The position numbers and the translations under genes were made by a program. From NCBI GenBank assembly GCA_022764275.1, contig JALERH010000030.1:10314-74313 (forward strand): 64,000 nt of DNA. The letters run 5' to 3'. How positions within the stretch are numbered: the first letter of the stretch is position 1; each line of letters starts with the position of its first letter. Of this stretch, positions 22,905-45,620 are shown piece after piece. Under the pieces are notes generated by a model that was not told the DNA's origin, searched no databases, and worked only from the letters and a program-made list of their open reading frames with translations. Origin of the DNA: Blautia sp. (GTDB lineage: Bacteria; Bacillota; Clostridia; Lachnospirales; Lachnospiraceae).

Positions 22905-22935
22905 CTCATTTGTCCTCCTTAATTTTTTGGAAACC

Positions 22936-28191: not shown

Positions 28192-29265
28192 TTACAACAC
28201 TTCGTTTAATACGGAAAGTCCGTATTCTGCCAGGCTGTTATCCTCCTCGCCGGTACCACCGCTGACTCCCAGTCCTCCGATAATGGTATCACCCACTTTA
28301 ATCGGAACACCGCCGCCAAAAATAACGATTTTGCCGCCATCCATCTTATCCACACCATAGAAGGTTTCGCCGGGCTGAGCCAATTTGGAAAGTTCCATTG
28401 TGGACATTTTTACAGCTACGGAGGTATAGGCTTTCTTTAAAGCAACGTCAAAGCTTACCAGAAACGCACCGTCCATTACATGTACCGCAATAGGATTCCC
28501 TTCCGGACCACAGATTGCAATGACTGCTTTCTTTCCACGCCTGTTTGCTTCCTGCTCGATTTTCTCAATGAGGCGTTTTGCGCTCTCCAGAGTGATTCTG
28601 CCCTGGATTCCCATGCGTTTTAATACTTCCTGGATGACAGCTTCGTCAGCTGCTGCTTTTGTAGTCTGCTCCATTGTCATACCCTTTCCTGCAGTCTGTG
28701 TTCCTCTGACAGCTTCTGCAACAGCCGGAGTGGTCTCCGTCTCTTTATTGGCACCTATTCCCGCTTCTTTGGCATCTGCATATCTGGCAAGAACATACAG
28801 ATAATCTGCCAGACGATTCATGTATTTTTTCGTTCCGGTGTCTGTTCCGAATTTTACACTGACAGCCGCGAGAGCTCGTTCTGCTCTTCTCGCCACCGTA
28901 CGTGCAACATCAATCTCTGCGGAAAGCCTGCATGCACCAGGAAGGATAAATTTTTTCGGACGGTCAAACAATGCTTCCATGCGGTCGATTTCTTCCTCCA
29001 GAAGCTCTGTCTTATCATCACTTATCTTGTATTCCCTGTTGTATGGATCAGCTACTCCTGCCATTATGGTAATGAGAGTTGCCTGGATTTTCTCCAGAAA
29101 ATGGATGATATCTCCGTCACTCAGCATGGTCTTCACCACACCGATATGGCTGGTCAGCTCATCTATGGTCCCTACAAGCTGGATCCTGTCATCCGACTTG
29201 GAGACATTTTTCGTATGAACAAGGCTCGTGGTGCCTTTATCCCCGCCCTTTGTGTATACATTCAT
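28192..29265 (-). CDS. pduO: ATP:cob(I)alamin adenosyltransferase with C-terminal haem-binding (GlcG-like) domain
   Basis: VYTKGGDKGTT, GTIDEL, ARTVARRAER, NRLADYLY; then AVHVMDGA...KKAYTS...FGGGVP...GGLGVSGG. Confidence 0.93.
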   Translation of the reverse strand: MNVYTKGGDKGTTSLVHTKNVSKSDDRIQLVGTIDELTSHIGVVKTMLSDGDIIHFLEKIQATLITIMAGVADPYNREYKISDDKTELLEEEIDRMEALFDRPKKFILPGACRLSAEIDVARTVARRAERALAAVSVKFGTDTGTKKYMNRLADYLYVLARYADAKEAGIGANKETETTPAVAEAVRGTQTAGKGMTMEQTTKAAADEAVIQEVLKRMGIQGRITLESAKRLIEKIEQEANRRGKKAVIAICGPEGNPIAVHVMDGAFLVSFDVALKKAYTSVAVKMSTMELSKLAQPGETFYGVDKMDGGKIVIFGGGVPIKVGDTIIGGLGVSGGTGEEDNSLAEYGLSVLNEVL

Positions 29266-29283
29266 AACGGCTATCCTCCAAAA

Positions 29284-29619
29284 CTAAATCACCGGTTTAA
29301 ACGGCATCTTTTTAATCGCTCTTGCACTGTTTGCCCCAAGATTACGACATTGCCAGAAGCGGGGCATGTTCAGCTCAAAAACATTTCTTCCTTTGGGAAG
29401 GCGTTCCATCTGCATTGCCAGACGCGCTCCCGTGATTCCGACTCCAGAGCCCAGCATGGATTCCTTTGCAGCCTCAAAGGCAAGCGTATCCAAATCTCCC
29501 TCATGGGATGAGACCTGGTAAAGTACACCCTCTTCCTCGATTCCTGCGCATACTTCCCGCAGAAGATCTTCGTCCGGCTCATTGGTGTAAATAATGATTG
29601 CAGGCTTATTAACTACCAT
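29284..29619 (-). CDS. pduH: Diol dehydratase reactivase small subunit
   Basis: VCAGIEEEGV...AAKESMLGSGVGI...RNLGANSAR; RBS AGGAGG at the 29619 start. Confidence 0.9.
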   Translation of the reverse strand: MVVNKPAIIIYTNEPDEDLLREVCAGIEEEGVLYQVSSHEGDLDTLAFEAAKESMLGSGVGITGARLAMQMERLPKGRNVFELNMPRFWQCRNLGANSARAIKKMPFKPVI

Positions 29620-29685
29620 GCTCTCCTCCTGCCATCTGTAAACAGAAAGCATCTGTTTACTTACCATGGCGTATCTCTATCACTC

Positions 29686-31500
29686 TTATCTGTCGCTCAG
29701 ATAAGACAATAACAATCCTGTGGCAACTGCATTTCGCGGTCCCTCGCAGCCACGGATATTTCCACGGCCGCAGACAATGCGGTATTCAGAAAGAGCTTCC
29801 ATCAGCATCTCCGGAATCTCAAAGTCTTCGGCAGACCCGCCAACCAGCACCACGTTTGGTATTTTTCGTAAATCATGTTCCGGTGCAACTGTACGCAAAG
29901 CTCTGATGGCATTTCGTACAAACACTTTCTTCTTCGCATCCCTTCTCACTTCCAGAATGCGCTCCATAGGAATGTCTTCCTCAACCTTCAGCATCTCGCC
30001 CGGAGCAAGGAGCACCACATGCCCATAATACCTCGGATCAATGGAATCCTCGAAAAACTGCATAGCGCCGTTTTCCAGACGCATATGAAACAGGCTCTCC
30101 ACTTTTCCCATAGGATATTTTTTAATCTGTTCGGCTGTCACACGGCTGTGAAGTCCCAGTTCTGTCTGAATCAGCATGGAAACAAGTTCGCCGGCACCTG
30201 CCTGATGCGTCGTTCGCACACTTCCATCCGGCCCCAGAACCGCCGCATCTGTAGACCCGCCTCCCATATCCAGAATGGCAAGGGGAAGCTTTGTCCCCGG
30301 TGTGGTCATTGCACCAAGGGATGCCATGACAGCCTCCACACCTGCTACCACAGCCTTTATATGAAGTTCACTTTCCAGACGCTTTGCAATCTGCTGCATG
30401 GGAAGATGCTGTGTCTTTACCATAGCGGCAATTCCCACTGCCTTTTCCATACAGGTTTCTCCTGCAAGAGAACCGGATATCTCCACCGGTGCAAGGGTAT
30501 CGACAGCCAGGATATCTGTAATCCGGATATGATTTTCCTGTGACTGAGCCACATCCGCCATACTGGTCTTGATCCGGTTCAGCATATTTCCTACATTCGT
30601 ATCCTGCTGACCGTCAATATCACGGATTTCACCGGCATCCGTCAGCGTCTTCATAATATCATCTGCTCCGGCATCAATATTCACGCATAAATCCTGATCA
30701 CCGTGGAAGGTGATCTCACCAGCCGGAAGGACATTCTCCCTGATGTTTCCGTGAGGGGTCTTAATGACCACTGCACTCCGTTTTCCAACAAGGCTCTTTG
30801 CAATAGGAGTGACTGCTTTCGTTTCCTCTGCATTCAGCCCCAGAAGAGTGGCAATTCCATAAGGATTGGAAAGCATCCGAATCGTAGTCCCGGGAAGTGC
30901 CACCTCAATGGCAGCCAGCTTTCCCTCGGGAATCTTACTGATATGGCGTACTTCATCCACAATCGGGATTGGTCTGTTCAGTCGGTTCTCCACAAGAACA
31001 GCTTCATCTGCCTGGAGGATCAGCCCTCTGATGTCAAGCTCAGGAATATGCTGATTCATTCTTGCAGCAACCTCTTCATAGGAAAATTTATTGGACGCGG
31101 CAATGATATAGGCTGTACCCGGTTTTCCCTTCCAGATATTTTCCAGAAGAAGGAGTTCTCCTACCGCTTCCCCTGCACCTGCAGGCGTGGAAGGATTGTG
31201 TCCGATCATAGAGGATTCCGTGATAATGGTCTCCGTAATGGTCTCCATTGCCGTATCACCAATAACAGGAGCCGCTTCATTCAGGCGCACCAGATCAAGG
31301 GCACTCAAAGGCTGATGAATCTTATCCATTGCCTCCAGAAGAGCCGCCTTAATCCCGTGAACATTCGGAATGGTTCCCTTGGTTCCGGTTGTCATACGGG
31401 AAGCGCTTGAGAGGAAATGGAATTTTCCATTGTCCTCCACGCCTCCGATACATACTTCAGTTGTGGAATTTCCTATGTCAACACCAGCAATCAGTTTCAA
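29686..31500 (-). CDS. pduG: Diol dehydratase reactivase large subunit
   Basis: AGVDIGNSTTE, LIRLNEAAPVIGD, ILDMGGGSTDA, VVLVGGSA, GPRNAVATG. Confidence 0.96.
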   Translation of the reverse strand: MKLIAGVDIGNSTTEVCIGGVEDNGKFHFLSSASRMTTGTKGTIPNVHGIKAALLEAMDKIHQPLSALDLVRLNEAAPVIGDTAMETITETIITESSMIGHNPSTPAGAGEAVGELLLLENIWKGKPGTAYIIAASNKFSYEEVAARMNQHIPELDIRGLILQADEAVLVENRLNRPIPIVDEVRHISKIPEGKLAAIEVALPGTTIRMLSNPYGIATLLGLNAEETKAVTPIAKSLVGKRSAVVIKTPHGNIRENVLPAGEITFHGDQDLCVNIDAGADDIMKTLTDAGEIRDIDGQQDTNVGNMLNRIKTSMADVAQSQENHIRITDILAVDTLAPVEISGSLAGETCMEKAVGIAAMVKTQHLPMQQIAKRLESELHIKAVVAGVEAVMASLGAMTTPGTKLPLAILDMGGGSTDAAVLGPDGSVRTTHQAGAGELVSMLIQTELGLHSRVTAEQIKKYPMGKVESLFHMRLENGAMQFFEDSIDPRYYGHVVLLAPGEMLKVEEDIPMERILEVRRDAKKKVFVRNAIRALRTVAPEHDLRKIPNVVLVGGSAEDFEIPEMLMEALSEYRIVCGRGNIRGCEGPRNAVATGLLLSYLSDR

Positions 31501-31892
31501 AGAAGAATTCCCCTTTTTTCATAAATTTCTGCAGCTTCCAGTACCAGCTTTGCACAGTGTGGTGCATGATACTTTTCCAAAAGCTCCTGCGCGATCAGAA
31601 GAAGCTCGCGTTTTGTGGAGCGGTTTGGACGAAGCTTGTTGTACATATTCAAAATCACATCGTCAGGAACATTTACCAGCTCAGCGGCACGATCAAAGTT
31701 TGCCTCCATCTGGGGATTGTCAGCCTCAGCTGCAACCTGTCCCTGCCGTTTCAACATTTCAGAAGAGATTTTAATATCTTCTGCTGTAACATTGCCGCGC
31801 TTTACCTCATCAAGGGTAATCTCAGAAAGTTTCTTTCCGGTCTTGGAGGTAATGGTATCGGCTTCGTTGCGTCCTAAAGGATAATTGCTCAT
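31497..31892 (-). CDS. pduE: B12-dependent diol dehydratase small subunit
   Basis: YPL...TGKKLSEITL...NFDRAAEL...YNKLRPNRSTK...EAAEIYEKR. Confidence 0.95.
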   Translation of the reverse strand: MSNYPLGRNEADTITSKTGKKLSEITLDEVKRGNVTAEDIKISSEMLKRQGQVAAEADNPQMEANFDRAAELVNVPDDVILNMYNKLRPNRSTKRELLLIAQELLEKYHAPHCAKLVLEAAEIYEKRGILL

Positions 31893-32584
31893 CTTGTGCC
31901 CTCCCATTCAATCATGCCCATTTCCGGGTCAAGCTGCTCTGTCTCAATAATATGCATAAGAGCTGCCTTTACCTGGTATTTTGCACGAACCATAGGGTCG
32001 TTGGTACACTCGATGGGTGTTACCTTTTCCCCTTTTACGTATTTTGCAGCATTTCTGCCGATCTTACGATAAGTGTCGAGATCCATCAGCGGTGCCTGTG
32101 GGAAAAGCTCAAGGTTTGACAGCGGATACAGGTCTTTCTGGTGAATTACCGTTGTACCCTTTGACTGGATTCCGATACCGATTCCGGAACCGGAAAGCTT
32201 TGCTGCCTCCAACGCCATGAAGCCCACATCTGAGGTATCCAGAACCTTCACAACACGTGAAGTCATGCCTTCCTCCTCAATGCCTGCTTTCACATTACGA
32301 AGCACGTCATCCAGCGGAATTCCGCCCATGGTGGCGTTGATCTCTGTCTGGAAAGCTGCCCCTACACCGATGACAACTTCTTTAGGGTCAGTTCCTTTTG
32401 CGGCTTTTGCGGCTCCTGCGTAGGAACGCTTCGGACGCATTCTCGTTCTTCCGGCAAGACCGGAAGTGCCTGCCGGTGAACTGCTTCCGGCATCCGATGT
32501 GGTCTGGGGCTGTGCATTTTTTTTCTGCAACTGCTCCACGACCGCTTTGGTAATGGCCTGTATCAGTTGATCATTCATCTCCAT
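31889..32584 (-). CDS. pduD: B12-dependent diol dehydratase medium subunit
   Basis: EVVIGVGAAF, AGIEEEG, SGSGIGIGIQSKGT, LELFPQAP; N-terminal amphipathic helix. Confidence 0.96.
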   Translation of the reverse strand: MEMNDQLIQAITKAVVEQLQKKNAQPQTTSDAGSSSPAGTSGLAGRTRMRPKRSYAGAAKAAKGTDPKEVVIGVGAAFQTEINATMGGIPLDDVLRNVKAGIEEEGMTSRVVKVLDTSDVGFMALEAAKLSGSGIGIGIQSKGTTVIHQKDLYPLSNLELFPQAPLMDLDTYRKIGRNAAKYVKGEKVTPIECTNDPMVRAKYQVKAALMHIIETEQLDPEMGMIEWEGTR

Positions 32585-32595
32585 GGCACAGCCTC

Positions 32596-34260
32596 CTAAA
32601 ATTCATTTACATTAATTCTGTGAGGAATTGCTTTGATTTCCTCCCAGCGTTTTCCTGTTACACGATATCCGGTTCCGGGGCCCATGTAGTCGTTCGGAGT
32701 ATTCACACCGGACATTACCTGGAAATTCTCATCCAGAATCGCTGCGGTATGCATATAATCTCCGATCACACGCTGTTTCAGCATGTTCAGAATGCTTTGA
32801 GCAAGCTCTTCAAAGCCACTCTCTGCAAGAGCCTTTACCACATCAATTCCGGTAATGCCTCGCTTCATCAGGTCATCTGCTGCCATAATGTCTGCTGCGG
32901 AATCACGGTTTAAAGTGTCCTTACTTCCATGTGCGTAGGTAACTGCCTCCACCTGCTCATCTGTGATCTCGGTGAGTCCAAGATATTTGAACACAGCCTG
33001 AACCGCTTTTCCGGCAAGGTTACGTACACGGATTACTTCTTCCTCTGTTACCGGACGAAGGCCGCCGTCCACCTGCATATCTCTCTGCATGACATTATAA
33101 TCATCAAAGTCTTCCGCATCAAAGTTGGAACCGGCGAACATATTATCATAGTTTGGTTCTGCCGCATATCCGGAGAAGATAAAGTCTGTACCTGGCATAA
33201 ACTGCAGCATGGTTCTGGCTGTCCTTCGCATATCGGAATTGGAAAAGCTCTGGTCATTGGAGGAAGCACATTCCAGTCCAAGAAGTGCTGCCACCAGGTT
33301 CTCACCCATGACTTCCCGGATTCCTGCCGGAACACCGGCTGCAACGCCGATACAGCTTACGGAACCATTCTGGATACCCTGGGAACCTGCACCTTTTGTC
33401 ACATACAGACATCTGCATTCCAGGTAAAGCATGGATTTCATCTCACTGCTTCCCATCAGAACTTCAGAACCTGCACCGGAGGTAAATCTTACCTTCAGAC
33501 CTCTTGATGCATAAGCGGAATTCAGGAATGCCTTGGAATAAGGGGTATCATCACCGTCTACGAAAACTTTTTCCGTACCATATACGGAAAGGGTTTCTGC
33601 ATAAGTGGTAAAGCCGCGGATTCCGAGCTCCAGCTCAGTTGCTTCCTCTGCGGAGCACTGTGTCAGGACACCTTTTCTCCCTGCCTGGGAACCGATCAGA
33701 AGTGCAATGGAGCTAAATGGTGCGTAACGGGCTACCCCCATGGTAGTCTCCTCTTCGCTGAAACCACGAAGAGCACCTTCTGCCGCATCTGCTGCTATCT
33801 GAACCGGATCATCCTTCAGATTGGTGATATGCGCCTGGTTTCCCGGCACTTTTCTGGCACGCATCTTCTGCATCCCCATCATCATTTCCACTACGTTCAG
33901 ATAGTTAATGACCTCCACCATTTTCGCCGGTGTAATACCGGATACAATGGTCAGAATTTCTTTTCTTGTTGTCTGGATATCCACGATTTTTCTCGCGATT
34001 TCCAAAGAAGAAATCGCCATGGATTCCTCAGCTCTGTCTATGCGAATCGCATAATCAGCAATAAACTGATCCAGGAAGTCGAAATCTTCTCTCTTCTTCC
34101 CATCCAGTTCTGTGATTACGCCATTCTTTACTTTTACAGAGGGCTTTGGATCATAGGGGCTGCTCATTGCGACAAAGCCCATCTCCGGCCATTCGTCGAT
34201 AAACCCGTCTTTATTTACAGCTCTTTTGTCCAAAGTCTCAATTCTTTTCGATCTTTTCAT
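32596..34260 (-). CDS. pduC: B12-dependent diol dehydratase large subunit
   Basis: MKRSKR...RAVNKDGF, QAHITN, EEETT, QCSAEEATEL, YAETLSVYGTE, GDDTPYSK, NMFAGSNFD. Confidence 0.97.
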   Translation of the reverse strand: MKRSKRIETLDKRAVNKDGFIDEWPEMGFVAMSSPYDPKPSVKVKNGVITELDGKKREDFDFLDQFIADYAIRIDRAEESMAISSLEIARKIVDIQTTRKEILTIVSGITPAKMVEVINYLNVVEMMMGMQKMRARKVPGNQAHITNLKDDPVQIAADAAEGALRGFSEEETTMGVARYAPFSSIALLIGSQAGRKGVLTQCSAEEATELELGIRGFTTYAETLSVYGTEKVFVDGDDTPYSKAFLNSAYASRGLKVRFTSGAGSEVLMGSSEMKSMLYLECRCLYVTKGAGSQGIQNGSVSCIGVAAGVPAGIREVMGENLVAALLGLECASSNDQSFSNSDMRRTARTMLQFMPGTDFIFSGYAAEPNYDNMFAGSNFDAEDFDDYNVMQRDMQVDGGLRPVTEEEVIRVRNLAGKAVQAVFKYLGLTEITDEQVEAVTYAHGSKDTLNRDSAADIMAADDLMKRGITGIDVVKALAESGFEELAQSILNMLKQRVIGDYMHTAAILDENFQVMSGVNTPNDYMGPGTGYRVTGKRWEEIKAIPHRINVNEF

Positions 34261-34360
34261 AGCTTCTACCTTTTCTATAAAAAAGAATCGTATCTGTTCA
34301 GTACCTTCACAGAAAAGAATCTTAATTATTTTTTATGTACAAAACCATAGCTTCCCGAAA

Positions 34361-35512
34361 TCAGAAAGACCACAGCTTTGTATAGATTTTTACGATATCT
34401 TCCTTGGTCGGAACTCTCGGATTGTTTGCTGTGCATGCATCTGCCAGCGCTGCATCTGCCATCTTGTCAATTGCGGCAAAATAAGCATCCGGAGTAATGG
34501 TTCCAAGCTCCTGGATCGTCAGCGGAATGTTCATTTCCTTCTGCATGAACTGAATCCAGTTTACCAGGGATCTCACCGTCATAACTTTATTGTAATTGCT
34601 TAATCCAAGAATGTGTGCGATATTTGAATACCGTTTCACTGCCGGAAGGTACTCCTTCTGACTCCTGCTGTGTTTGTTGATGTCCGCATTAAACTCAACA
34701 ATATGAGGGAGCAGCATTGCATTTGCCCGTCCGTGAGGAATATGGAAAATTGCTCCGAGCTGATGTGCCATACTGTGCGTAATTCCAAGACCTGCCGTAT
34801 TAAAAGAAAGTCCCGCAAGACAGGATGCCACGTGCATCTTCTGGCGGGCATGCATGTCATTTCCGTCCAGATATGCTCTCAGCAGGAATACTCCGCAGAT
34901 TTCAATGGCTTTCTCAGCAAGTGCGGAAGAAAACTCATTGTGCTGCGTGCTTACATAAGACTCCAGTGCATGGGTGAAAACATCCATTCCCGTATCTGCC
35001 GTAATCGCAGGCGGAACACTTCTGACAAGCTCTGCATCCAGAATCGCCTCATCGGCTGTCAGGCTGTCAGATATAAGAGGATATTTCACATGTGCATCTG
35101 TATCATTTACAACAGCAAAAGAGGTTACCTCAGAGCCTGTTCCGCTTGTGGTGGGAATGGCAATCAGGCCAACCTTACCATAGTTGTTGATTTTTAAAGC
35201 AAACTCACGGATCGCCTTGGATGAATCGATGGCAGAACCGCCACCCACAGCCACAATTGCTTCCGGCTGATACTGCAGGAATTTGCTTACACCCTCCGCG
35301 ATTTTTCCAACAGGTGCATCCGGAACAACATCACTGAAGATGTCATATTCAATGCCGCCCTGCTTCAAAGGCGTAGTGATCAGATCGATCATGTTCCCCT
35401 GTGCAATAAAAGGGTCTGTGATGATCAGAACGCGTTTGTATGGAAGGTTCTTCAGTCTCTCCAGTGCATTGTCGCCGAAATGGATGACTGTTTTCATTTC
35501 AAAGGTCTTCAT
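34361..35512 (-). CDS. pduQ: Fe-containing 1-propanol dehydrogenase
   Basis: AVGGGSAID, IPTTSGTGSEVT, TGMDVFTHALE, HSMAHQLG, PHGRANA. Confidence 0.88.
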   Translation of the reverse strand: MKTFEMKTVIHFGDNALERLKNLPYKRVLIITDPFIAQGNMIDLITTPLKQGGIEYDIFSDVVPDAPVGKIAEGVSKFLQYQPEAIVAVGGGSAIDSSKAIREFALKINNYGKVGLIAIPTTSGTGSEVTSFAVVNDTDAHVKYPLISDSLTADEAILDAELVRSVPPAITADTGMDVFTHALESYVSTQHNEFSSALAEKAIEICGVFLLRAYLDGNDMHARQKMHVASCLAGLSFNTAGLGITHSMAHQLGAIFHIPHGRANAMLLPHIVEFNADINKHSRSQKEYLPAVKRYSNIAHILGLSNYNKVMTVRSLVNWIQFMQKEMNIPLTIQELGTITPDAYFAAIDKMADAALADACTANNPRVPTKEDIVKIYTKLWSF

Positions 35513-35538
35513 ATATGATGCTCCTTTTCCAGTGGATG

Positions 35539-36303: not shown

Positions 36304-36340
36304 AGTCTCCTGCCTCCTTTTGAGGTATCGTGGTATGATA

Positions 36341-36889: not shown

Positions 36890-36905
36890 GTTCTGCACGT
36901 CCTTT

Positions 36906-38234
36906 CTACTTCTTTGCAATTATAATGTGGCGGTCTGTCACTTCGGTTACTTTTCCACAGATGGATGCATGGATGCCGACGCTTAATCCGTTGGCAGGCT
37001 GTGCGATCATCTGTCCTCTTGTCACTTCATCGCCTACTTTTACAATCGCCTGGGCCGGTGCTCCGATGTGCTGGCTCAAAAGAATCTTCACCTTTGGAAT
37101 ACCCACTAAGGTCTCATCCATTGGTGCATCCTTGTCGTACCTGGTCAGGGCAAGACGTGCCATCAGTCGTTCTTCCGGTACTTTGCGGTATGCCCTGGAT
37201 TCCTTTATAGGAGCTGGCTGTACTCCCTGAGGAGGACGGATTCCTCCTTTGCGAAGTCCTGCTTTCATGTCAGCCAGAAGGGTTCTGGGTGCCAGGCTCT
37301 GCGGACAGGAATACATCTCACATACTCCACAGGAACTGCAGAAGCTTGCATCGATATATGGATTCAGATCTCTGAAATCCTGATTGGATGCTGCTCTCAT
37401 AAACAGTGCCGGGTCAATGGGATGTCCAAGGTTGTTACGCGGACAAAGGTCCGTACAGGTTTCACAATGGCAGCAGATAGATGCTGCACGTTTTAAATCT
37501 ATGGAAGAAGTGCGAAGCTTCTTCTGTACGATTACATGATCCTTTGGAAGAACCAGAATCGCATTCGTCGTTTTTGTTACCGGTTCAGAACCGCTGCCGA
37601 TACGTCCCATCATAGGACCACCGATAAAGTATACCGGATCCTTAACGGTCACACCGCCTGCCTGGGCAACTACATCATCCATTGTACAGCCGAGCGGAAC
37701 GCGGACTGTAACCGGATGGTTTACCTCTGCAACAACGGATACGTATTTGTCCGTTACCGGCATCTGTTTTTCCACTGCACGGTAAACGTTGTAGATTGTC
37801 TCTACATTGAATACGGCCACGCCCTGTTCAATAGGCAGACCGCCGGGTCTTACCACCCGGCCGGTTGCCTCATAGATCAGGACAACCTCATCTCCCATAG
37901 GATACACTTCATCAAGGAGGTGAATCCTCATATTCGGGAATTCTTCAATATGCTGGTTTAAAGCATTCACAGTCTGTACATAAGATTTTTTTATTCCAAT
38001 AATGGCCTCGGATGCGCCTACGGTCTCCGCCACCAGATTAAAGGTCTTCATAATCTCATATGCGTGCTTTTCCAGTAACTGTCTGTGTAGTTTCAGTAAA
38101 GGCTCGCATTCTGCACAATTCATGAGAATCGTGTCTGCCTTATCGCTCAGCTTCATATAGGTAGGGAAGCCTGCGCCACCGGCACCAACTACACCGTTCT
38201 CCTGTATAATGTTCTGTAATTCTTTGATATCCAT
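36906..38234 (-). CDS. pduS: PduS-like cobalamin reductase (RnfC-like flavin/Fe-S protein)
   Basis: GAGGAGFPT, NCAECEP, CCHCETCTDLCP, CSSCGVCEMYSCP, C-terminal QHIGAPA barrel. Confidence 0.9.
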   Translation of the reverse strand: MDIKELQNIIQENGVVGAGGAGFPTYMKLSDKADTILMNCAECEPLLKLHRQLLEKHAYEIMKTFNLVAETVGASEAIIGIKKSYVQTVNALNQHIEEFPNMRIHLLDEVYPMGDEVVLIYEATGRVVRPGGLPIEQGVAVFNVETIYNVYRAVEKQMPVTDKYVSVVAEVNHPVTVRVPLGCTMDDVVAQAGGVTVKDPVYFIGGPMMGRIGSGSEPVTKTTNAILVLPKDHVIVQKKLRTSSIDLKRAASICCHCETCTDLCPRNNLGHPIDPALFMRAASNQDFRDLNPYIDASFCSSCGVCEMYSCPQSLAPRTLLADMKAGLRKGGIRPPQGVQPAPIKESRAYRKVPEERLMARLALTRYDKDAPMDETLVGIPKVKILLSQHIGAPAQAIVKVGDEVTRGQMIAQPANGLSVGIHASICGKVTEVTDRHIIIAKK

Positions 38235-38238
38235 GGCG

Positions 38239-38505
38239 TTACTCCAATCCTGCACCGTCATCGATGATACCCACGATGGCAGCATCTACCGGTGCTGTTT
38301 CTACGCCGCAGCCAATTCTTGCTGCGCTTCCCTGTGCCACCAATACATATTCTCCGATTCCTGCACCGATGATATCGATTGCAACAATCTGACTGAGGTC
38401 ACCTTTCATATGATGCACCGGCTCCACAATCATAAATTTATTTCCAATCAGTTTTTCACTTTTTCGTGTGGATACCACGCTTCCTACTACTTTGCCTACA
38501 ATCAT
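38239..38505 (-). CDS. pduN: BMC pentamer (EutN/CcmL/PduN)
   Basis: GKVVGSVVSTRK...AIDIIGAGIGE...GSAAR...DAAIVGIID. Confidence 0.93.
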   Translation of the reverse strand: MIVGKVVGSVVSTRKSEKLIGNKFMIVEPVHHMKGDLSQIVAIDIIGAGIGEYVLVAQGSAARIGCGVETAPVDAAIVGIIDDGAGLE

Positions 38506-38541
38506 ATGAGCCTCCAAAAAAATTTGTGTTAATTCTCCACT

Positions 38542-38565
38542 GCCGATGGCAGAATTGCCATCGGC
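38542..38565. repeat. Intra-operon 10-bp stem-loop between pduL and pduN
   Basis: GCCGATGGCA-GAAT-TGCCATCGGC; no immediate U-tract on the sense strand. Confidence 0.7.
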
Positions 38566-38589
38566 TGTGCGGATGAATTGATTCTTTTT

Positions 38590-39234
38590 TTATTTAATGA
38601 TGGTAACTGTATTGCCTGTGGCGATTTTTGCTGCATTTGCTTCATCGGTATCAATATGCATTTCCAGTGTAAAGCTGTCATCAACGCGAATCTTTACCTG
38701 ATTAAAGATTGTTCCACGCTCATTGTCAGCTTTTACGGATACAATGTCACCGTCCTTAACACCTGCTGCCTGAGCATCCTTCGGAGACATATGGATGTGG
38801 CGCATTGCCACAATACATCCCTCCTGCAGATAAATAGCACCTTTCGGGCCCACGATGGCAATGGGAGCACTGCCCTTTACATCACCGGATTCACGAACCG
38901 GAACTTTCATGCCAAGTTTGATGGCATCTGTAGCTGATACCTCAACCTGAGACGCTTTACGAACCGGTCCTAAGATCCGGACATTTTCAATTGCACGAAG
39001 TTTCAGTCCCACAATGGTAACTGTTTCGTTGGAAGCGAACTGGCCGCCCATCAGATCTTTTTTCTTGGTGAGCTGATATCCCGGTCCGAATAACGCTTCA
39101 ACATGCTCCTGTGTCAGGTGAATGTGTCTTGCGGAAACTCCGATCGGCACCATAAAGCCGTCGCCTTTTTTTTCGTTTTTGTTAATTGCATCGATTACCA
39201 TTTTGGTAATGAGTTCGATATTATTCGTTTCCAA
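38590..39234 (-). CDS. pduL: Phosphate propanoyltransferase
   Basis: IGVSARHIHL, RILGPVR..SQVE, RHIHMSP, EMHIDTDEANA. Confidence 0.95.
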   Translation of the reverse strand: METNNIELITKMVIDAINKNEKKGDGFMVPIGVSARHIHLTQEHVEALFGPGYQLTKKKDLMGGQFASNETVTIVGLKLRAIENVRILGPVRKASQVEVSATDAIKLGMKVPVRESGDVKGSAPIAIVGPKGAIYLQEGCIVAMRHIHMSPKDAQAAGVKDGDIVSVKADNERGTIFNQVKIRVDDSFTLEMHIDTDEANAAKIATGNTVTIIK

Positions 39235-39272
39235 GCGTACACCTGCTTTCTTTCCAGTTTTTCAGTTATTCT

Positions 39273-39740
39273 TTATTTCAGAACCGGAAGGATTTTCTCA
39301 ACGTCAGTGTGTGGTCTCGGGATTACATGTGTAGCTACCAGTTCACCAAGTCTGGATGCTGCTGCGCTTCCGCTCTCTACTGCAGATTTAACAGCTCCTA
39401 CGTCTCCACGAACCATAACGGTTACAAGACCGGAACCGATCTTCTCTGTACCAACTAATGCAACATTAGCTGCTTTGCACATCTGGTCTGCTGCTTCGAT
39501 AGCGGCTGTAAGTCCTCTGGTTTCCACCATTCCTAATGCTTCCTGTGTCATGATTTTTTCCTCCTTATGGGTTGTTGATGCTTCAACATTTATTTGATTC
39601 GTTTCTGTAGTGTTTTCTTCAGCTACGGCTGCATCTGCTTTCACAGCCTGTGCTTTTGTGGTTTTTGCCGTTCTTCTGGGAGCGGCTGCCTTTTTAGGGG
39701 CTGTGTTTTTCGCTGTTGATTTTTTTTCTTCGTCAGCCAT
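39273..39740 (-). CDS. BMC hexamer (PduA/J-like) with 63-aa Lys/Ala-rich N-terminal extension; second start at 39551
   Basis: BMC domain [10 protein letters not shown]...RGDVGAV...HVIPRPH; internal AAGGAGG RBS 8 nt before the MTQEALG codon. Confidence 0.9.
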
Positions 39741-39751
39741 GATTCATCCCC

Positions 39752-40048
39752 CTATTTATCCTTGTTGTTCCATCGACTTGCGCTTAATTCCACCATCTTG
39801 ACGATTTCCTCATGGGGACGGGCAATTACTGCGTAGCTTGCCGGTTTTTTAATGGCATTTGCCACTGCTGCCTCTACAGCTTCTGTGACAGCTGCCACAT
39901 CGCCTTCTACAATAATGGTCACCAGTCGTCCGCCCAGCTTACGCTCCCATGACTTCAGTTCAACATCTGCCGTTTTGCACATGATGTCCAGCGCATCCAA
40001 AGCAGCCACAACACCTGTGATTTCTATAAAACCATATGATTTACTCAT
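39752..40048 (-). CDS. BMC hexamer shell protein (divergent)
   Basis: GFIEITG..AALDALD.MCK...GGRLVTIIVEGDVAAV...VIARPH. Confidence 0.9.
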   Translation of the reverse strand: MSKSYGFIEITGVVAALDALDIMCKTADVELKSWERKLGGRLVTIIVEGDVAAVTEAVEAAVANAIKKPASYAVIARPHEEIVKMVELSASRWNNKDK

Positions 40049-40080
40049 GAGCGAACTCCTTAATACCCTTCACCTTTTTG

Positions 40081-40356
40081 TTAGATGGTAGGCAGGATTT
40101 TTTCCACATCTGTATGTGGTCTCGGGATTACATGGGTAGCAACCAGCTCACCAAGTCTGGATGCTGCTGCGCTTCCGCTTTCTACTGCTGCCTTAACAGC
40201 TCCAACATCACCGCGAACCATAACAGTTACAAGACCGGAACCGATTTTTTCAGTACCAACGAGTGTAACCTCTGCAGCCTTGGTCATTGCATCTGCTGCC
40301 TCGATTGCAGCGGTAAGTCCTCTGGTTTCTACCATTCCTAAAGCTTCCTGTGCCAT
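40081..40356 (-). CDS. pduA: BMC hexamer shell protein (PduA/J-like)
   Basis: [21 protein letters not shown]...[16 protein letters not shown]...HVIPRPH. Confidence 0.88.
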
Positions 40357-40423
40357 GATGAATTCCTCCTGAATTTAACCTAAATAATAAACAGTTTATT
40401 TATCAAACCATCCGTCGGCGCCG

Positions 40424-40738
40424 CTAATCCTTGTCAAGGGCGCTGATCTTAAGCATTTTTTCCGTACCGGCTTCCGGGTTTGGAATTACATAATGCTGTA
40501 CCACTCCGGTCATGTTGTTTGCAACTTCCATTCCGGCTTCCACGGCTGCTGTCACATCTGTCACGCTTCCGCGGAATTTGATGCAGACAAGGAGTGGTAC
40601 CGGCAGACTGTCCGCATTTGCAGGTTTATTTTTATCAAAAACCTCCAGATGGACATTTGCTGCCTTACAGCCGGCATCGGCCGCTACGAAAGCTGTGGTC
40701 AGTCCGAATACCTCTAAAATTCCTACAGCTTCTGCCAT
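40424..40738 (-). CDS. BMC hexamer shell protein (divergent, loop insertion)
   Basis: AVGILEVFG..AFVAADAGCKAA...RGSVTDV.AAVEAG...YVIPNP. Confidence 0.85.
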   Translation of the reverse strand: MAEAVGILEVFGLTTAFVAADAGCKAANVHLEVFDKNKPANADSLPVPLLVCIKFRGSVTDVTAAVEAGMEVANNMTGVVQHYVIPNPEAGTEKMLKISALDKD

Positions 40739-40761
40739 CTTGTTTCTCCTTTATCCTGCAA

Positions 40762-41985
40762 TTATTTATTTACAACTGCAATCTTCAGACCTGTCATTGC
40801 AAGGTTGGTCTTCAGAGCTTCGTTAATCTCCTCTAACGGGAACTTGTCAGTGATCAGTTCTGCCATTGGAAGTCCAATGCCTTTTGCTCTCTTTAAGAAG
40901 TCAAAAGTAGTAACGTAATCTCTCAGAGTGTAAACCCAGGAGCCTACGATCGTGATTTCCTTGGAGCAGATGTCAAAGTGCGGGTTAATGGTTGCATCGC
41001 CGCCATTGATAAAGAATCCAAGCTCGCAGAGACCGCCGCCGTTACGGATAAATTTGTAGATATTTGCATGTGCAACAGGAGAACCTGTACACTGGAATGC
41101 AAAGTCTGCAAGGTGTCCGCCGAACTGCTCTTTCACTGCATCTGCAAGGGCTTCAATTCCCTTATGGTCTTTGAAGTTTACAGACATCGTTGCGCCCATT
41201 CTCTTGGCAAAGTCAAGACGTTTCTGCTCACCGTCTACTGCACAGATGTTTTCCACACCCATAGTACGCAGGATAGCAATACAGATCAGACCGATCGGTC
41301 CGCATCCCTGAACTACAACTCTGCTGTTGAAGCGAAGGATACCGGTTGTTTTTGCTCTCTCAACTGCATGGATCAGAACAGCACACGGCTCGATCAGAAT
41401 ACGGGAATCCAGATCCAGATCACTTACATTAAAGAATGTGGATCCAAACTCACCGCCGCGGATGAAGATGTAATCAGAAAACCATCCATTCAGATGAATA
41501 TCATCGTCCGGCAGAAGACCGTATACATCAGCACCGCCAACATTTTTCTTATTTAAGTCGAACATGGTGATTTCCGGATCATCCTTGAAAATCATACAGG
41601 TAACAACTTTATCGCCGACCTTAACTGGTTTTCCGGCTGTATCCGTTTTTACATTTTTACCCATTGCCACGATCTCACCGGTTCCTTCGTGTCCAAGTGC
41701 AACCGGGATCAGGTTAAACGGGTCTCTCTTGAATTCATGAGCGTCTGTACCGCAAACACCGCAGCCTTCTACTTTAACCAGGATATCGTCATCTCCCAGA
41801 GGAGGAATCGGGTATTCTTTTAATTCAAAGTGCTCTTTTTCTGTCAGGACTGCTACTCTTGAGGTCTTCGGAATTGCTCCGCCTGCTGCCGGTGCAGCCG
41901 GTGTAGATGCTGCCGGAGCATTTCCTGTCATACCTGCAAGTACCTGTTTTACAATTTCTTCAATATTTACATTATTCATATCCAT
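40762..41985 (-). CDS. Zn-dependent alcohol dehydrogenase with N-terminal encapsulation peptide (probable lactaldehyde reductase)
   Basis: NIEEIVKQVLAGM helix plus Ala/Pro linker; GCGVCGTDAH, LGHEGTG, VQGCGPIG. Confidence 0.85.
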   Translation of the reverse strand: MDMNNVNIEEIVKQVLAGMTGNAPAASTPAAPAAGGAIPKTSRVAVLTEKEHFELKEYPIPPLGDDDILVKVEGCGVCGTDAHEFKRDPFNLIPVALGHEGTGEIVAMGKNVKTDTAGKPVKVGDKVVTCMIFKDDPEITMFDLNKKNVGGADVYGLLPDDDIHLNGWFSDYIFIRGGEFGSTFFNVSDLDLDSRILIEPCAVLIHAVERAKTTGILRFNSRVVVQGCGPIGLICIAILRTMGVENICAVDGEQKRLDFAKRMGATMSVNFKDHKGIEALADAVKEQFGGHLADFAFQCTGSPVAHANIYKFIRNGGGLCELGFFINGGDATINPHFDICSKEITIVGSWVYTLRDYVTTFDFLKRAKGIGLPMAELITDKFPLEEINEALKTNLAMTGLKIAVVNK

Positions 41986-42002
41986 GTTTTTCTATCCTCC
42001 TG

Positions 42003-43391
42003 TCAACGAATGCAAAGGCTGTCTGACATTGTGCAGCGTCTTCTCTTGGTAAAGGTGCTTGCGCTTGTAAGACCTTCACCGGTACGGCTTGCGATGGTAA
42101 ATGTACAGAAACCTTCTCCTCCGAATCCAAGTGCTGCATAGGAAGGTGCATTCTTTACAAGGATTGCGGTATCGATTGCTTTCGCATATTTGGTGATATT
42201 GTCAATGTTCTTGGAATGGATGTGTGCAGAATGGCGGTTGCCATGCTCCAGCCATACAGCCTGCTCTACTGCATCATCAAAATCCTTTGCTCTTACAACG
42301 CCAAGGATTGGCATCATAAGCTCAGTAGTGATGAGAGGATGTTCCTTCGGTCCTTCAAATACGATGCAGCGGATGTTTGCAGGAGCATTTACTCCAATCA
42401 TGGAAAGAAGTGTTCTTGCATCACGTCCTACACATTTACGATTCAGTTTACCGCCTGCCAGAACTACTTCTGTCAGTTTATCCTGCTCTTCTTTGGAAGC
42501 CAGATAGCAATCATTCTCTGTAATCAGATAATGCATCAGTTCATCCACGATGGAAGATACTGCTACGATTTCTTTTTCAGCAATACATGGAAGGTTATTA
42601 TCAAATGTACATCCGTTTACAATATCCTGAGCAGCTTTACGAATGTCTGCTGTTTCATCTACCAGTGCCGGTGGGTTGCCAGCGCCGGCGCCGATTCCAC
42701 GTTTTCCGGAAGAAAGAACTGCTGTTACAACGCCGGGACCGCCTGTTGCTGCAATAAGCGGGATATCTTTATGTTTCATCATGATATTGCTTGTCTCTAA
42801 GGTTGGTTTTTCTACCGTGACTGCAATGTTGTCCGGTCCGCCAGCTTCCAGAGAAGCTTCGTTTAACAGATTGATTGCATAGATAGATGTTTTGATTGCT
42901 GCCGGATGTGGGTTAAATACAACTGTATTTCCGCCTGCCAGCATACCGATTGTATTGCACAGGATTGTCTCACTTGGGTTCGTACACGGTGTAATGGCAC
43001 CGATCACACCGAAAGGTCCCATTTCGATCAGAGTCAGTCCTCTGTCACCGGACCATGCGGTCGTTGTGATATCCTCAGTACCCGGAGTCTTATCTGCTAC
43101 CAGATGATGTTTCAGGATCTTATCCCCAACATTTCCCATTCCGGTTTCATCCACACCCATACGGGCAAGGATTTCCGCATTTTCTCTTGTTTTTTTGCGG
43201 ATGCAGGTGATGATTTTCTCTCTCTGGTCCATGGACATTCTTCTTACAATCTGGTCAGCTTTCTTTGCCGCTTCGATTGCATCGTTCATATCTTTAAAAA
43301 CGCCATGTTTACCGGCCGGAGCTTCTGCAATCTGCATTTTTGCCATTACTTCCTGTACAATATCCTGTACCATAGTCTCGCTAATTGGCAT
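42003..43391 (-). CDS. pduP: CoA-acylating propionaldehyde dehydrogenase
   Basis: MVQDIVQEVMAKM helix; ITPCTNP, ATGGPGVV, GAGAGNPP, FDNNLPCIAEKE, ELMMP, TIASRTGEG. Confidence 0.95.
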   Translation of the reverse strand: MPISETMVQDIVQEVMAKMQIAEAPAGKHGVFKDMNDAIEAAKKADQIVRRMSMDQREKIITCIRKKTRENAEILARMGVDETGMGNVGDKILKHHLVADKTPGTEDITTTAWSGDRGLTLIEMGPFGVIGAITPCTNPSETILCNTIGMLAGGNTVVFNPHPAAIKTSIYAINLLNEASLEAGGPDNIAVTVEKPTLETSNIMMKHKDIPLIAATGGPGVVTAVLSSGKRGIGAGAGNPPALVDETADIRKAAQDIVNGCTFDNNLPCIAEKEIVAVSSIVDELMHYLITENDCYLASKEEQDKLTEVVLAGGKLNRKCVGRDARTLLSMIGVNAPANIRCIVFEGPKEHPLITTELMMPILGVVRAKDFDDAVEQAVWLEHGNRHSAHIHSKNIDNITKYAKAIDTAILVKNAPSYAALGFGGEGFCTFTIASRTGEGLTSASTFTKRRRCTMSDSLCIR

Positions 43392-43423
43392 GAGATTGTT
43401 CCTCCTTTTCATTTACAGAATGA

Positions 43424-44236
43424 TTATTTCAGGCCTAACTGCTCCATAACCTGTTTTGTGATGCTTGCTACTAAATCCGCATCTGCTGTCTGAGCTGCAG
43501 TGTCTTCTTTTGCTCCGCCACAGCTTCCGCCGCAGTTATGGCAGTTCATGCCGTTCTTATTCTGGCAAAGGTTTGCCGGATGTTTTCCTGGCAGGCCCAT
43601 TTTTCTTCTGATCTCGTAAAGTTTTGCGATCTGCTCTTTGTCGAATTCCTTCGGTCCGCCAAGCATTTTGGATTTGTAAAGAAGCTCTGCGTAGAATTCT
43701 ACAGATTCCATCTTCATGTATGCAGCCATAAGGTCTGTGGACCAGGTCAGAGCGCCGTGGTTTTCAAGGAGAACTGCATCGTAGTATGGAAGATATTTCT
43801 CTACTGCATCCGGAATTTCCATAGTGGATGGTGTGCCGTATTCAGCGATCGGAACACATCCGAGAGCGATAACTGCTTCAGGCATGATCGGCTGTGTCAG
43901 CGGAATACCAGCGATTGCGAAAGATGTAGCGAAAGTCGGATGAGCATGTACAACTGCTCCTACGTCTGGTCTTTTTGCGTAAACTCTCATGTGCATCTTA
44001 ATCTCAGATGATGGACGGAATCCCGGATTAGCCTGGATCACATTACCCTGTGCATCTACCTTACAGATAAATTCCGGAGTCATGAAGCCTTTGGATACGC
44101 CTGTCGGTGTGCAAAGGAACTCATTGTCATTGAGCTTCACGGAAATGTTACCATCATTTGCAGCAACCATATTACGGTTGTAAATTCTTCTGCCGACTTC
44201 GCAAATCTGTTTTTTGATTTCAAATTCGTTTACCAT
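43424..44236 (-). CDS. fucA: Class II aldolase (L-fuculose-1-phosphate aldolase) with C-terminal encapsulation peptide
   Basis: AANDGNIS, TPTG, PSSEIKMH, VVHAHP, LLENHG; C-terminal Cys cluster and DLVASITKQVMEQL helix. Confidence 0.85.
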   Translation of the reverse strand: MVNEFEIKKQICEVGRRIYNRNMVAANDGNISVKLNDNEFLCTPTGVSKGFMTPEFICKVDAQGNVIQANPGFRPSSEIKMHMRVYAKRPDVGAVVHAHPTFATSFAIAGIPLTQPIMPEAVIALGCVPIAEYGTPSTMEIPDAVEKYLPYYDAVLLENHGALTWSTDLMAAYMKMESVEFYAELLYKSKMLGGPKEFDKEQIAKLYEIRRKMGLPGKHPANLCQNKNGMNCHNCGGSCGGAKEDTAAQTADADLVASITKQVMEQLGLK

Positions 44237-44352
44237 GTTTTTTTCCTCCTTAAACGCATTTGGATGCAGCTGCCATACTTTTATTTGCAGCTGCATTGGG
44301 TAACTTTTTATGGCTGAAAATGCAGCCTGTTACTTTTTGTGTTTCTGATGCA

Positions 44353-44442
44353 ATTCTACAGTATTCCACAAAATAAGTCAAGTATATTCTGTTGATTTAT
44401 GTTGTTTTTCGTGAAATTTCAATGTTGTTTTATTTTGTTTTT
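44353..44442 (-). promoter_or_regulatory. Internal sigma70 promoter for fucA-pduP with an upstream array of TGTTG(A/T)TTT repeats
   Basis: TTGACT(44381-44376)-17-TAGAAT(44358-44353); TGTTGATTTA, TGTTGTTTTT and TGTTGTTTTA at 44390, 44400 and 44423. Confidence 0.6.
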
Positions 44443-44900
44443 GTTTTTCCCTGTTCCCACGGCATCACATCCCCATCCTCCCGGAGATATTCCAGGATTT
44501 CCGGCACTCCTTCCTGTGTTTTCGAATCCACATAAAAGATTTTTTCACAGCCGGCAAGCTTCAGCCACGCTGTTGCACGGTTGGTGTCTGCACCAGGTTC
44601 ATGGATTTTTGTCACGATTCCTATCACCTCACGGTTCGCCATACAGGTGATGCAGGGCGGAAACAGACAGTACGGCTCTGTGGCCGAAACGAGAAGTCCC
44701 ACAATATCGGACTCATATGTATACAATGCAAGGGCATGTCCAAGTCCCTTCGTCTGGGCATATTCCCCCGGTGTATCCACGATAACATCAAAATGATTCA
44801 CATACTGGGTTTTGTGATAATGTATCTTCTCCCCCCGCAGGGCCTGGGTCAGGGTTGTCTTTCCCGCCTCACTGCGGCCTATGAGAACAATTTTCTTCAT
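44430..44900 (-). CDS. pduV: EutP/PduV small P-loop GTPase
   Basis: LIGRSEAGKTTL, KTQ, DTPGEY, IVTKI. Confidence 0.92.
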   Translation of the reverse strand: MKKIVLIGRSEAGKTTLTQALRGEKIHYHKTQYVNHFDVIVDTPGEYAQTKGLGHALALYTYESDIVGLLVSATEPYCLFPPCITCMANREVIGIVTKIHEPGADTNRATAWLKLAGCEKIFYVDSKTQEGVPEILEYLREDGDVMPWEQGKTKTK

Positions 44901-44956
44901 ATTATGCTGTCAGTCCTTTCCAATGTCTGATACGGAGAACTGTTTTTCTCAAAGTA

Positions 44957-45334
44957 TCATGTTCTGGTAATCGGACATATGACGAATCCCAACTTCCCGT
45001 CAACATAATCCAGAACTGCTTTGGTGGATGCCTCCACCTCGGACACAGTACCAGTGATGATCAGGCTGCCGCTGAACCGATCCACAAACCCCAGTTCAAC
45101 ACCAGATGACTTGATCGCAATATCTGCCATGATAATGGCCGTTTCCGCAGGACTGACCGTCATAATTCCGATTGCAGCACGGGAATAATCAACGGATGGA
45201 TCAAGGCCAAGCTTGGTATACAGAATCTTATCCGGGTTTGCGATAATGTGAGCCAGCGAAATCTGCTTACCAGGAACCAGCTCCTGTATAATACGCTGTT
45301 TCATCTCCGGAGACATATTGTCCGTATATCCCAT
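44957..45334 (-). CDS. pduU: Circularly permuted BMC shell protein (PduU/EutS)
   Basis: RIIQELVPGKQISLAHIIANP...MTVSPAE...DRFSGSL. Confidence 0.92.
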   Translation of the reverse strand: MGYTDNMSPEMKQRIIQELVPGKQISLAHIIANPDKILYTKLGLDPSVDYSRAAIGIMTVSPAETAIIMADIAIKSSGVELGFVDRFSGSLIITGTVSEVEASTKAVLDYVDGKLGFVICPITRT

Positions 45335-45439
45335 TTTTTACCTCCTATCCGACAGAAGATGCCAGAAGCCCTGCTGTCTTTATTCTCTTCCTTGCCAAAA
45401 AGCGCAGAAGCAAAACGTTCGATGCGTTTCATGTCATTT

Positions 45440-45590: not shown

Positions 45591-45620
45591 GAAAACAGAA
45601 AAAATCCAAAGAAAAAGGAG

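Follow-up and report, generated by a model that had tools for sequence, protein, structure and literature searches.

Can the signature enzyme of a bacterial microcompartment (BMC) be exchanged while the shell around it is kept? This question is raised by a locus of Blautia sp. at positions 28192 to 45334 of a 64,000-nucleotide stretch of genomic DNA (the window), in which genes for a GRM5-type shell and its core enzymes are followed by those for a B12-dependent diol dehydratase (PduCDE), its reactivase (PduGH) and an adenosyltransferase (PduO), and in which neither a glycyl-radical enzyme (GRE), the usual dehydratase of GRM5 loci, nor its activase was found. By comparing the locus with its counterparts in the genus and the family, we arrived at a reading in three parts, in which, taken jointly, we have considerable confidence: that the locus forms one operon, running from a predicted promoter near 45468 to a putative terminator near 28150; that this operon encodes a fucose/rhamnose-utilisation microcompartment of gut Blautia, with propionate as a fermentation product; and that it arose through a single fusion, after which one or the other dehydratase was lost repeatedly.

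A GRM5-type block joined to a B12 module

Genes were called from Pfam and NCBIfam profile matches on the open reading frames (ORFs) of the window. We refer to the GRM5-type shell and core-enzyme genes, from pduU and the aldolase gene to the DeoR gene and pduQ, as the block, and to pduCDE-pduGH-pduO as the module or cassette. The 21 genes of the locus lie on the minus strand, from 45334 down to 28192, and span approximately 17 kb with no gap longer than 133 bp. The profiles reproduced, gene for gene and position for position, the list from pduU to pduO that an earlier, sequence-only reading of the window had given, and agreed with it that GRE, activase, pduB, pduF and pduW are missing from the locus; PduM and PduK were likewise not found among the ORFs. 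A single transcription unit is suggested by the short gaps, by one promoter that matches the consensus at 12 of 12 positions and by the terminator-like hairpin after pduO. The promoter sits in the intergenic region between pduU and the gene of a PHP-domain protein, and this region is homologous among GRE-less loci.

Eight other Lachnospiraceae genera were found to have a PHP gene followed by the order GRE-activase-pduU-pduV-aldolase-(DUF336)-pduP-zinc-dependent alcohol dehydrogenase (Zn-ADH)-four BMC-H-pduL-pduN-pduS-pduT-DeoR-(pduQ). Block proteins are 55–97% identical to those of these GRM5 loci, with values of 73–85% for the aldolase and 76–82% for the Zn-ADH. Judged by synteny and phylogeny across the eight genera, the block is of the GRM5 type, as the sequence-only reading had proposed. 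That reading had also placed the junction with the B12 genes directly after DeoR. Here it has to be corrected, since pduQ follows the DeoR gene in the GRM5 loci of four of the eight genera sampled (L112, L113, L114 and L119) and is thus part of the block; the junction lies behind pduQ. The AT-rich 100-bp gap at this point, which had been taken as a possible seam, does have a low GC content, but the gap between pduV and the aldolase gene is also AT-rich (133 bp, 31% GC), and neither G+C content nor GC3 differed between the block and the B12 genes, so that no compositional seam was detected.

Origin of the B12 genes

The family was sampled with one genome per Lachnospiraceae genus (401 genomes), and PduC was found in 26 of them. 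In most of these 26, pduC-D-E-G-H-O stand on their own as a six-gene cassette, and the 13 kb upstream are free of shell genes; the genomes concerned have a canonical GRM5 locus elsewhere, with a DUF336 protein of ~170 aa and without a full-length PduO. In a tree of PduC and PduG, all fused modules of the Blautia type formed one clade (support 97), sister to a stand-alone cassette and nested among cassettes, and the representative of the classical propanediol-utilisation (PDU) loci, whose PduC has 64% identity, stood on a branch of ~1.8 substitutions per site. The PduC protein of the window groups with the stand-alone Lachnospiraceae cassettes (78–91% identity) and not with PduC from PDU loci (63–65% identity to classical PDU PduC of the same family). 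Its place inside the cassette clade, far from classical PDU, upholds the earlier proposal that the B12 genes are an addition to the locus. An independent fusion was observed in another Lachnospiraceae genus (L086; G137:C3:12801-32800), with the order aldolase-DUF336-pduP...DeoR-pduCDEGHO-GRE and a module that stems from a different cassette clade.

Four dehydratase states within the genus

With PduS as the marker for the block, a scan returned 80 loci, all from Blautia or close kin, at 80–96% PduS identity, the nearest being that of Ruminococcus sp. 5_1_39BFAA (G528, locus L068; 96%), a cultured relative whose locus is B12-only as well. When the window proteins were mapped onto these 80 Blautia-type loci, the same block was found together with four dehydratase states. 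GRE and activase genes at the 5' end are combined with pduCDEGH at the 3' end in 19 loci; a further 19, for example those of the B. wexlerae and B. luti group, have GRE and activase only; pduCDEGH alone is present in 14 rows, which include the window and two re-fetched duplicates; and both dehydratases are missing from four loci (B. faecis, B. glucerasea, B. acetigignens). Strains with a dual locus include Blautia schinkii DSM 10518 and B. caecimuris DSM 29492. Genes for PduQ and full-length PduO were found in all four states. Across the genus, a census of 136 species genomes found the block in 103, PduC in 56 and a GRM5-type GRE in 96. Dual-dehydratase loci are common: in 25 genomes the block, PduC and GRE lie side by side. 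Another 27 combine the block with an adjacent GRE and have no PduC, and in 49 PduC is next to the block; of these 49, 11 have a GRE elsewhere and 13, including the source genome of the window, have none.

Proposed history: one fusion and repeated loss

The tree of the block (five proteins, 71 loci) and that of the module (PduCDEG, 41 loci) were broadly congruent, and block and module distances were correlated both overall (Mantel r 0.92) and within core Blautia (0.69), with 0 of 2000 permutations in each case. The minimum number of state changes was five for the module and nine for GRE at the locus. The deepest lineages all have the module, module-less loci are nested within module-bearing ones, and dual loci stand on deep branches. 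In the GRE-only locus L062 (13900-14040), the ribosome-binding site of pduC and ~11 nt of this gene, with ATG changed to CAC, are kept after pduQ, and the sequence resumes 15 nt before pduO; the sister locus L063 (13885-18960) has the whole module. Read against its sister, L062 is a clean deletion of pduCDEGH. Furthermore, every GRE-only Blautia locus keeps an adenosyltransferase PduO of 352–412 aa, and GRM5 loci of other genera have at most the DUF336 protein of ~170 aa and never a full-length PduO. The adenosyltransferase PduO is not needed by GRE. Full-length pduO in GRE-only loci would be a relic of the module, which supports its loss.

The congruent trees, the presence of the module in the deepest lineages, the L062 scar and the relic pduO together argue for one fusion behind pduQ, with the dual locus as an intermediate. 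According to this history, the pduCDEGHO cassette would have joined a GRM5 locus whose 5' end held GRE and activase, in a single event basal to the Blautia-type clade, and the resulting dual-dehydratase locus would then repeatedly have lost one enzyme or the other. In the source lineage, GRE and activase would first have left the locus and would later have been lost from the genome, which would leave a B12-only organelle.

A different course of events, implied by the direct swap of signature enzymes that the sequence-only reading had envisaged, would be that the GRM5 locus of this lineage recently acquired a foreign B12 module by horizontal transfer, with direct displacement of its GRE. The module does derive from a mobile-looking cassette that is found at many genomic positions, there is an AT-rich spacer at the junction, and L086 represents an independent fusion in another genus. 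We nevertheless regard such a swap as very improbable and have abandoned it, given that the module and block trees agree and all fused Blautia-type modules belong to one clade, that the block and the module show no compositional contrast, that dual-enzyme loci are common and placed on deep branches, and that relics of the module persist in GRE-only loci. Moreover, GRE and activase genes lie at the opposite end of the locus from the module, which therefore did not displace them.

Fate of the glycyl-radical enzyme in the source genome

The source genome is a metagenome-assembled genome (MAG) of 2.63 Mb, 92% complete and divided into 205 contigs. In the clade of the window, GRE and activase genes are found at a separate site, after the genes for a 356-aa membrane protein and a histidine kinase (L101-L105, in G528, G448, G401, G402 and G484), and in G401, G448, G484 and G528 the 5' end of the BMC locus consists of the PHP gene directly followed by pduU. 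The membrane-protein gene is present in the source genome (contig C160, 91% identity), with unrelated genes after it, and a GRM5-type GRE was not found in the assembly, where the best GRE match is 26.6% identical. Both observations make it likely that GRE and activase have been lost from the source genome, which likely became B12-only through the loss of this pair, like 12 other species.

Alternatively, a GRM5-type GRE with its activase could be encoded elsewhere in the genome and have been missed in the incomplete, fragmented MAG, in which case the shell would be served by both dehydratases. The pair is indeed present at a separate site in G528/L068 and in four more members of the clade, and 11 of the 49 genomes whose locus includes the module have a GRE elsewhere. 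However, contig C160 covers the gene that precedes the pair in five relatives and then runs into unrelated genes, no match in the assembly exceeds 27% identity, and seven other genomes at at least 90% completeness are also without GRE. We consider this alternative unlikely, although it keeps some weight, and B12-only use after loss of the pair remains the preferred reading.

A divergent GRE with its activase, the only GRE of the assembly, is encoded in the window itself (3-2304, minus strand; genome C116:9311-12629), 26 kb from the locus. This GRE (3-1388) is 26% identical to GRM5-type propanediol dehydratases, has the C-terminal motif RIHGT instead of RVAGY, and is followed downstream by LacI, two FGGY kinases, a transaldolase-like gene, rhaB and rhaA. 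As the missing dehydratase it was ruled out on grounds of its low identity and its linkage to sugar kinases and the transaldolase-like gene. In the whole-genome search, PF01228 gave no score on this protein.

With regard to the cofactor, the B12 synthesis genes CbiC and CobS are present in the genome, which makes B12 supply plausible. B12 biosynthesis was ruled out as the explanation of PduCDE use, since CbiC is near-universal in the genus (125 of 136 genomes and 77 of 78 high-quality ones) and so does not separate the dehydratase states.

Proposed pathway and the question of one organelle

The pathway steps proposed here follow published GRM5 and Pdu models, and the encapsulation signals were read from the window sequence. 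In the cytosol, FucI, encoded next to the locus, or RhaA/RhaB, encoded 45 kb away, together with a kinase would yield fuculose- or rhamnulose-1-phosphate. Within the shell, the class II aldolase would cleave these to dihydroxyacetone phosphate and lactaldehyde, which the Zn-ADH would reduce to 1,2-propanediol using NADH. Propanediol would then be converted to propionaldehyde by the B12-dependent PduCDE, with upkeep by PduGH, PduO and PduS. PduP and PduL would carry propionaldehyde on to propionyl-phosphate and regenerate the NADH spent by the Zn-ADH, and PduQ would convert propionaldehyde to propanol. The shell itself would be composed of the four BMC-H proteins, PduU, PduT and PduN, and probably also of an orphan PduB encoded elsewhere.

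This orphan PduB equivalog of 237 aa (contig C162:18170-18883, minus strand; TIGR04501, 337.6 bits, cut-off 310) is remote from all other BMC genes. A gene of this kind was found in 89 of the 136 genus genomes, where it tracks the block (77 of 103 genomes with it against 12 of 33 without; p = 1e-4, not corrected for phylogeny) and shows no link to the B12 module (39 of 53 against 38 of 50; p = 0.82).

Amphipathic termini resembling encapsulation peptides can be read at the N-termini of PduD, PduP, Zn-ADH and PduL and at the C-terminus of the aldolase. The latter ends in the helix DLVASITKQVMEQLGLK behind a linker rich in Gly and Cys. The peptide of PduP reads MPISETMVQDIVQEVMAKM; that of Zn-ADH, NIEEIVKQVLAGM, is followed by a Pro/Ala-rich linker; that of PduL is NNIELITKMVIDAINK; and that of PduD, MEMNDQLIQAITKAVVEQLQKK, precedes a Ser/Gly/Pro linker and is also found in every stand-alone cassette. 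With such a peptide at the N-terminus of PduD, it is plausible that aldolase, Zn-ADH, PduP, PduL and PduCDE share one organelle lumen, and the earlier claim of a single organelle stands to this extent.

The locus might instead comprise two adjacent but separate systems, in which a PVM-like aldolase shell exports 1,2-propanediol and PduCDE-GH-O, cytosolic or in another compartment, is only co-regulated with it. In this sense, PduCD was found beside aldolase BMC genes in only 6 of 13 genomes and judged dispensable to the pathway (Ravcheev 2019), the cassette lies far from shell genes in other Lachnospiraceae genera, and both dehydratases are missing from four Blautia loci. On the other hand, the encapsulation peptide and linker of PduD are canonical in the window and in every cassette, the locus-encoded PduP, PduL and PduQ act on the product of the dehydratase, and the genes form one operon with short gaps. 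In addition, each of the 103 block-bearing genomes of the census has at least one of the two propanediol dehydratases, in contrast to only 8 of the 33 block-less ones. We consequently give two separate systems little credence and retain the single organelle as the preferred interpretation.

Several points weigh against the reading as a whole. The sequence missing from the MAG could hold GRE and activase genes, and the closest relative, at 96% PduS identity, has this pair. The trees were built in 'quick' mode, and their root rests on more distant loci of the sample. Apart from L062 and a weaker trace in L061, the 38 other module-less spacers were without a pduC remnant. The junctions at the 5' end did not decide between insertion and deletion of GRE and activase; only ~25 nt upstream of pduU in the window match the 3' end of the activase gene of relatives, and this stretch doubles as the ribosome-binding region of pduU. 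A fuculokinase gene was not identified near the locus. Encapsulation is read from sequence motifs only, and the position of PduCD beside aldolase BMC genes has been interpreted as functional coupling of two pathways and not as one organelle (Ravcheev 2019).

Features of the locus and its neighbourhood

The coordinates of the features are compiled in Table 1. The aldolase scored below the cut-off of every NCBIfam aldolase equivalog. For the Zn-ADH, the GRM5 model assigns the role of lactaldehyde reductase (Ferlez 2019). The fourth BMC-H protein has a low-complexity N-terminal extension of 63 residues, rich in Lys and Ala and then acidic, behind which its domain is nearly identical to the second BMC-H.

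Table 1. Features of the microcompartment locus and its conserved neighbours, in window coordinates.
Feature	Coordinates	Strand	Basis and remarks
PHP-domain hydrolase, divergent 5' neighbour	45318-46376	+	PF02811; true start probably near 45624
Predicted sigma-70-type promoter, TTGACA-17-TATAAT	45440-45468	-	Upstream of pduU; 12/12 consensus, best of the region
pduU/eutS-type permuted BMC-H	44957-45334	-	PF00936; NF012012 EutS, 102.6 bits, under cut-off 123
pduV/eutP GTPase	44430-44900	-	PF10662, 160 bits
Class II aldolase, fuculose/rhamnulose-1-phosphate aldolase type	43424-44296	-	PF00596, 174 bits
pduP, CoA-acylating aldehyde dehydrogenase	42003-43412	-	NF011927, 658 bits vs cut-off 403
Zn-dependent alcohol dehydrogenase	40762-41985	-	PF00107 + PF08240
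Four BMC-H	40424-40738, 40081-40356, 39752-40048, 39273-39740 (span 39273-40738)	-	PF00936, 74-107 bits
pduL phosphotransacylase (PTAC)	38590-39234	-	PF06130, 262 bits
pduN, BMC-P vertex pentamer	38239-38517	-	PF03319, 100 bits
pduS flavin/Fe-S oxidoreductase	36906-38285	-	PF01512, PF13375, PF13534
pduT tandem BMC-T	36341-36919	-	Two PF00936 domains, 156 bits
DeoR-family regulator	35539-36357	-	PF00455 + PF08220
pduQ-like Fe-alcohol dehydrogenase, final block gene	34361-35512	-	PF25137 + PF00465
Block/cassette junction, 100 bp	34261-34360	-	30% GC; weak terminator-like hairpin at 34368-34351
pduCDE, B12-dependent diol dehydratase	31497-34260	-	
pduC	32596-34260	-	PF02286, 994 bits; NF011979, 949 bits vs cut-off 788
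pduD	31889-32584	-	PF02288
pduE	31497-31907	-	PF02287
pduG, diol dehydratase reactivase	29686-31500	-	TIGR04491, 898 bits; pduGH matches: PF08841, PF18427, PF02288
pduH, diol dehydratase reactivase	29284-29667	-	See pduG for pduGH matches
pduO, cob(I)alamin adenosyltransferase + DUF336/HbpS-like domain	28192-29265	-	PF01923 + PF03928; TIGR00636, 150 bits vs cut-off 108
Palindromic terminator-like hairpin directly 3' of pduO	28151-28179	.	12-pair stem
AraC-type regulator, conserved 3' neighbour	26993-27844	+	Profile match
L-fucose isomerase FucI, conserved 3' neighbour	25009-26805	-	NF008220, 1050 bits

In every locus and genus examined, the PHP gene was the immediate upstream neighbour of GRE or pduU. 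It is an invariant divergent 5' neighbour across at least 10 genera (including loci L107-L119), whatever comes next, and its product may be the 'hydrolase' that Axen 2014 lists for GRM5. At the other end, the AraC and FucI neighbours are kept in Blautia loci of every dehydratase state. A full cobalamin riboswitch (RF00174, 95 bits; 47016-47200, minus strand) precedes the gene of a small Cys-rich PF04071 protein (46428-46790, minus strand); its distance to the pduU promoter of the B12-dependent organelle operon is two genes.

Further in the window, the cluster at 16395-23000 (minus strand) encodes a class II aldolase of the FBP/tagatose type, LacI, a XylB-like FGGY kinase, a Zn-dehydrogenase, a PfkB kinase and an aldo-keto reductase; it resembles a sugar-alcohol pathway and is unrelated to BMC. 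Elsewhere in the genome, a pair of BMC-H genes (C47:7927-8505, minus strand) lies beside genes of the xanthine-dehydrogenase type, possibly a BUF/xanthine-type locus, and an orphan EutS-like permuted BMC-H (C122:~26452-26880, minus strand) adjoins selB.

Prior record and significance

The combination found in the window has precedents. Supplementary Data 1 and 4 of Sutter 2021 list the bmcType 'PDU1D_GRM5' for shell proteins of, among others, Blautia obeum ATCC 29174, Clostridium methylpentosum DSM 5476, C. grantii DSM 8605 and an uncultured Blautia (SAMEA3545328); this initial label was marked as unresolvable and left out when the final analysis was made. The co-localisation in C. methylpentosum was called surprising and read as pathway coupling (Ravcheev 2019); 28 Clostridiales genomes with both dehydratases have been reported (Frolova 2022), and B. 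obeum is a standard pduC-bearing gut taxon. The novelty that the sequence-only reading had seen in the hybrid architecture is not sustained, since the architecture is already recorded in Sutter 2021 and Ravcheev 2019 and occurs in 49 of the 136 species genomes; the type is catalogued and the phylogenies of its two parts are congruent. The locus is a well-resolved example of a known but scarcely described type, and the combination is common in the genus.

A broader proposal, which we put forward tentatively and rate as somewhat short of probable, is that a single, conserved shell and core pathway in Blautia works with one or the other of two unrelated radical propanediol dehydratases or with the two at once, each with its own targeting signal; that species repeatedly drop one of them; that the dual locus is maintained as bet-hedging and the orphan PduB as a shared part of the shell; and that the source genome represents a B12-only endpoint. 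Bet-hedging, if true, would set a B12 enzyme that is oxygen-tolerant but cofactor-costly beside a GRE that is cofactor-free but oxygen-labile, and the genus would offer a natural experiment on the interchange of signature enzymes in bacterial organelles. The propionate that gut Lachnospiraceae form from fucose and rhamnose is relevant to health, with Blautia among the main credited genera, and the radical enzyme of a species decides both the corrinoid dependence of its propionate flux and whether the species is counted by pduC- or GRE-based marker genes. The value lies in the series, from separate cassette to fused dual locus to B12-only or GRE-only, and less in any single locus; together with a deletion scar and relic pduO, this series depicts a stepwise exchange of the signature enzyme that leaves the shell untouched. 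It also argues that aldolase-type 'PVM-like' loci, at least in Blautia, would be propanediol-processing organelles whose dehydratase is encoded elsewhere.

Comparison with known systems

With the GRM5 loci of Clostridium phytofermentans and Roseburia inulinivorans (Axen 2014, Zarzycki 2015, Ferlez 2019), the locus shares the aldolase with a C-terminal encapsulation peptide, Zn-ADH, PduP, PduL, the BMC-H set, PduN, PduS, PduT, DeoR, a DUF336 domain, the gene order and the PHP neighbour. In contrast to them, it is without GRE and activase, the defining signature enzyme of GRM5; it has PduCDE-GH and a full-length PduO after pduQ; and it has no separate DUF336 gene between the aldolase gene and pduP, DUF336 being present only as the C-terminal domain of PduO.

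The classical PDU1 locus of Salmonella enterica has in common with the window locus PduCDE, PduGH, PduO, PduS, PduP, PduL, PduQ, PduN, PduT, PduU and PduV, as well as the N-terminal encapsulation peptides of PduD and PduP. PduA/J/K/M, PocR, PduF, PduW, PduX and PduB are, however, not part of the window locus, which has an aldolase and a Zn-ADH. PVM and PVM-like loci resemble it in that they serve the use of fucose or rhamnose, encode a DeoR regulator and have a class II aldolase tagged with an encapsulation peptide, but PVM has no propanediol dehydratase and oxidises lactaldehyde, whereas the window has PduCDE in the same operon.

An interchange of B12-dependent and glycyl-radical propanediol dehydratases has also been described between PDU1AB and GRM4, with shell and gene order unchanged (Sutter 2021, Discussion). 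There, the shell is of a different lineage and the two enzymes occupy the same position; in the type represented by the window they stand at opposite ends of the locus, and dual intermediates survive.

A further counterpart is PDU1D_GRM5, whose combination of a GRM5-type shell, aldolase and PduCDE in one consolidated locus is found in the window. The shell genes of the window are orthologous to those of GRM5 loci, and Blautia proteins of the same lengths as its shell proteins are labelled with the hidden Markov model classes of PDU1D_GRM5, 'grm5a' and 'PVMlike-GRM5like', in the Sutter 2021 catalogue; the catalogue entries share the genus Blautia, and a satellite of the PduB type is noted for them too. 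The label was never described and is silent on the presence of GRE, and the window locus represents its GRE-free form.

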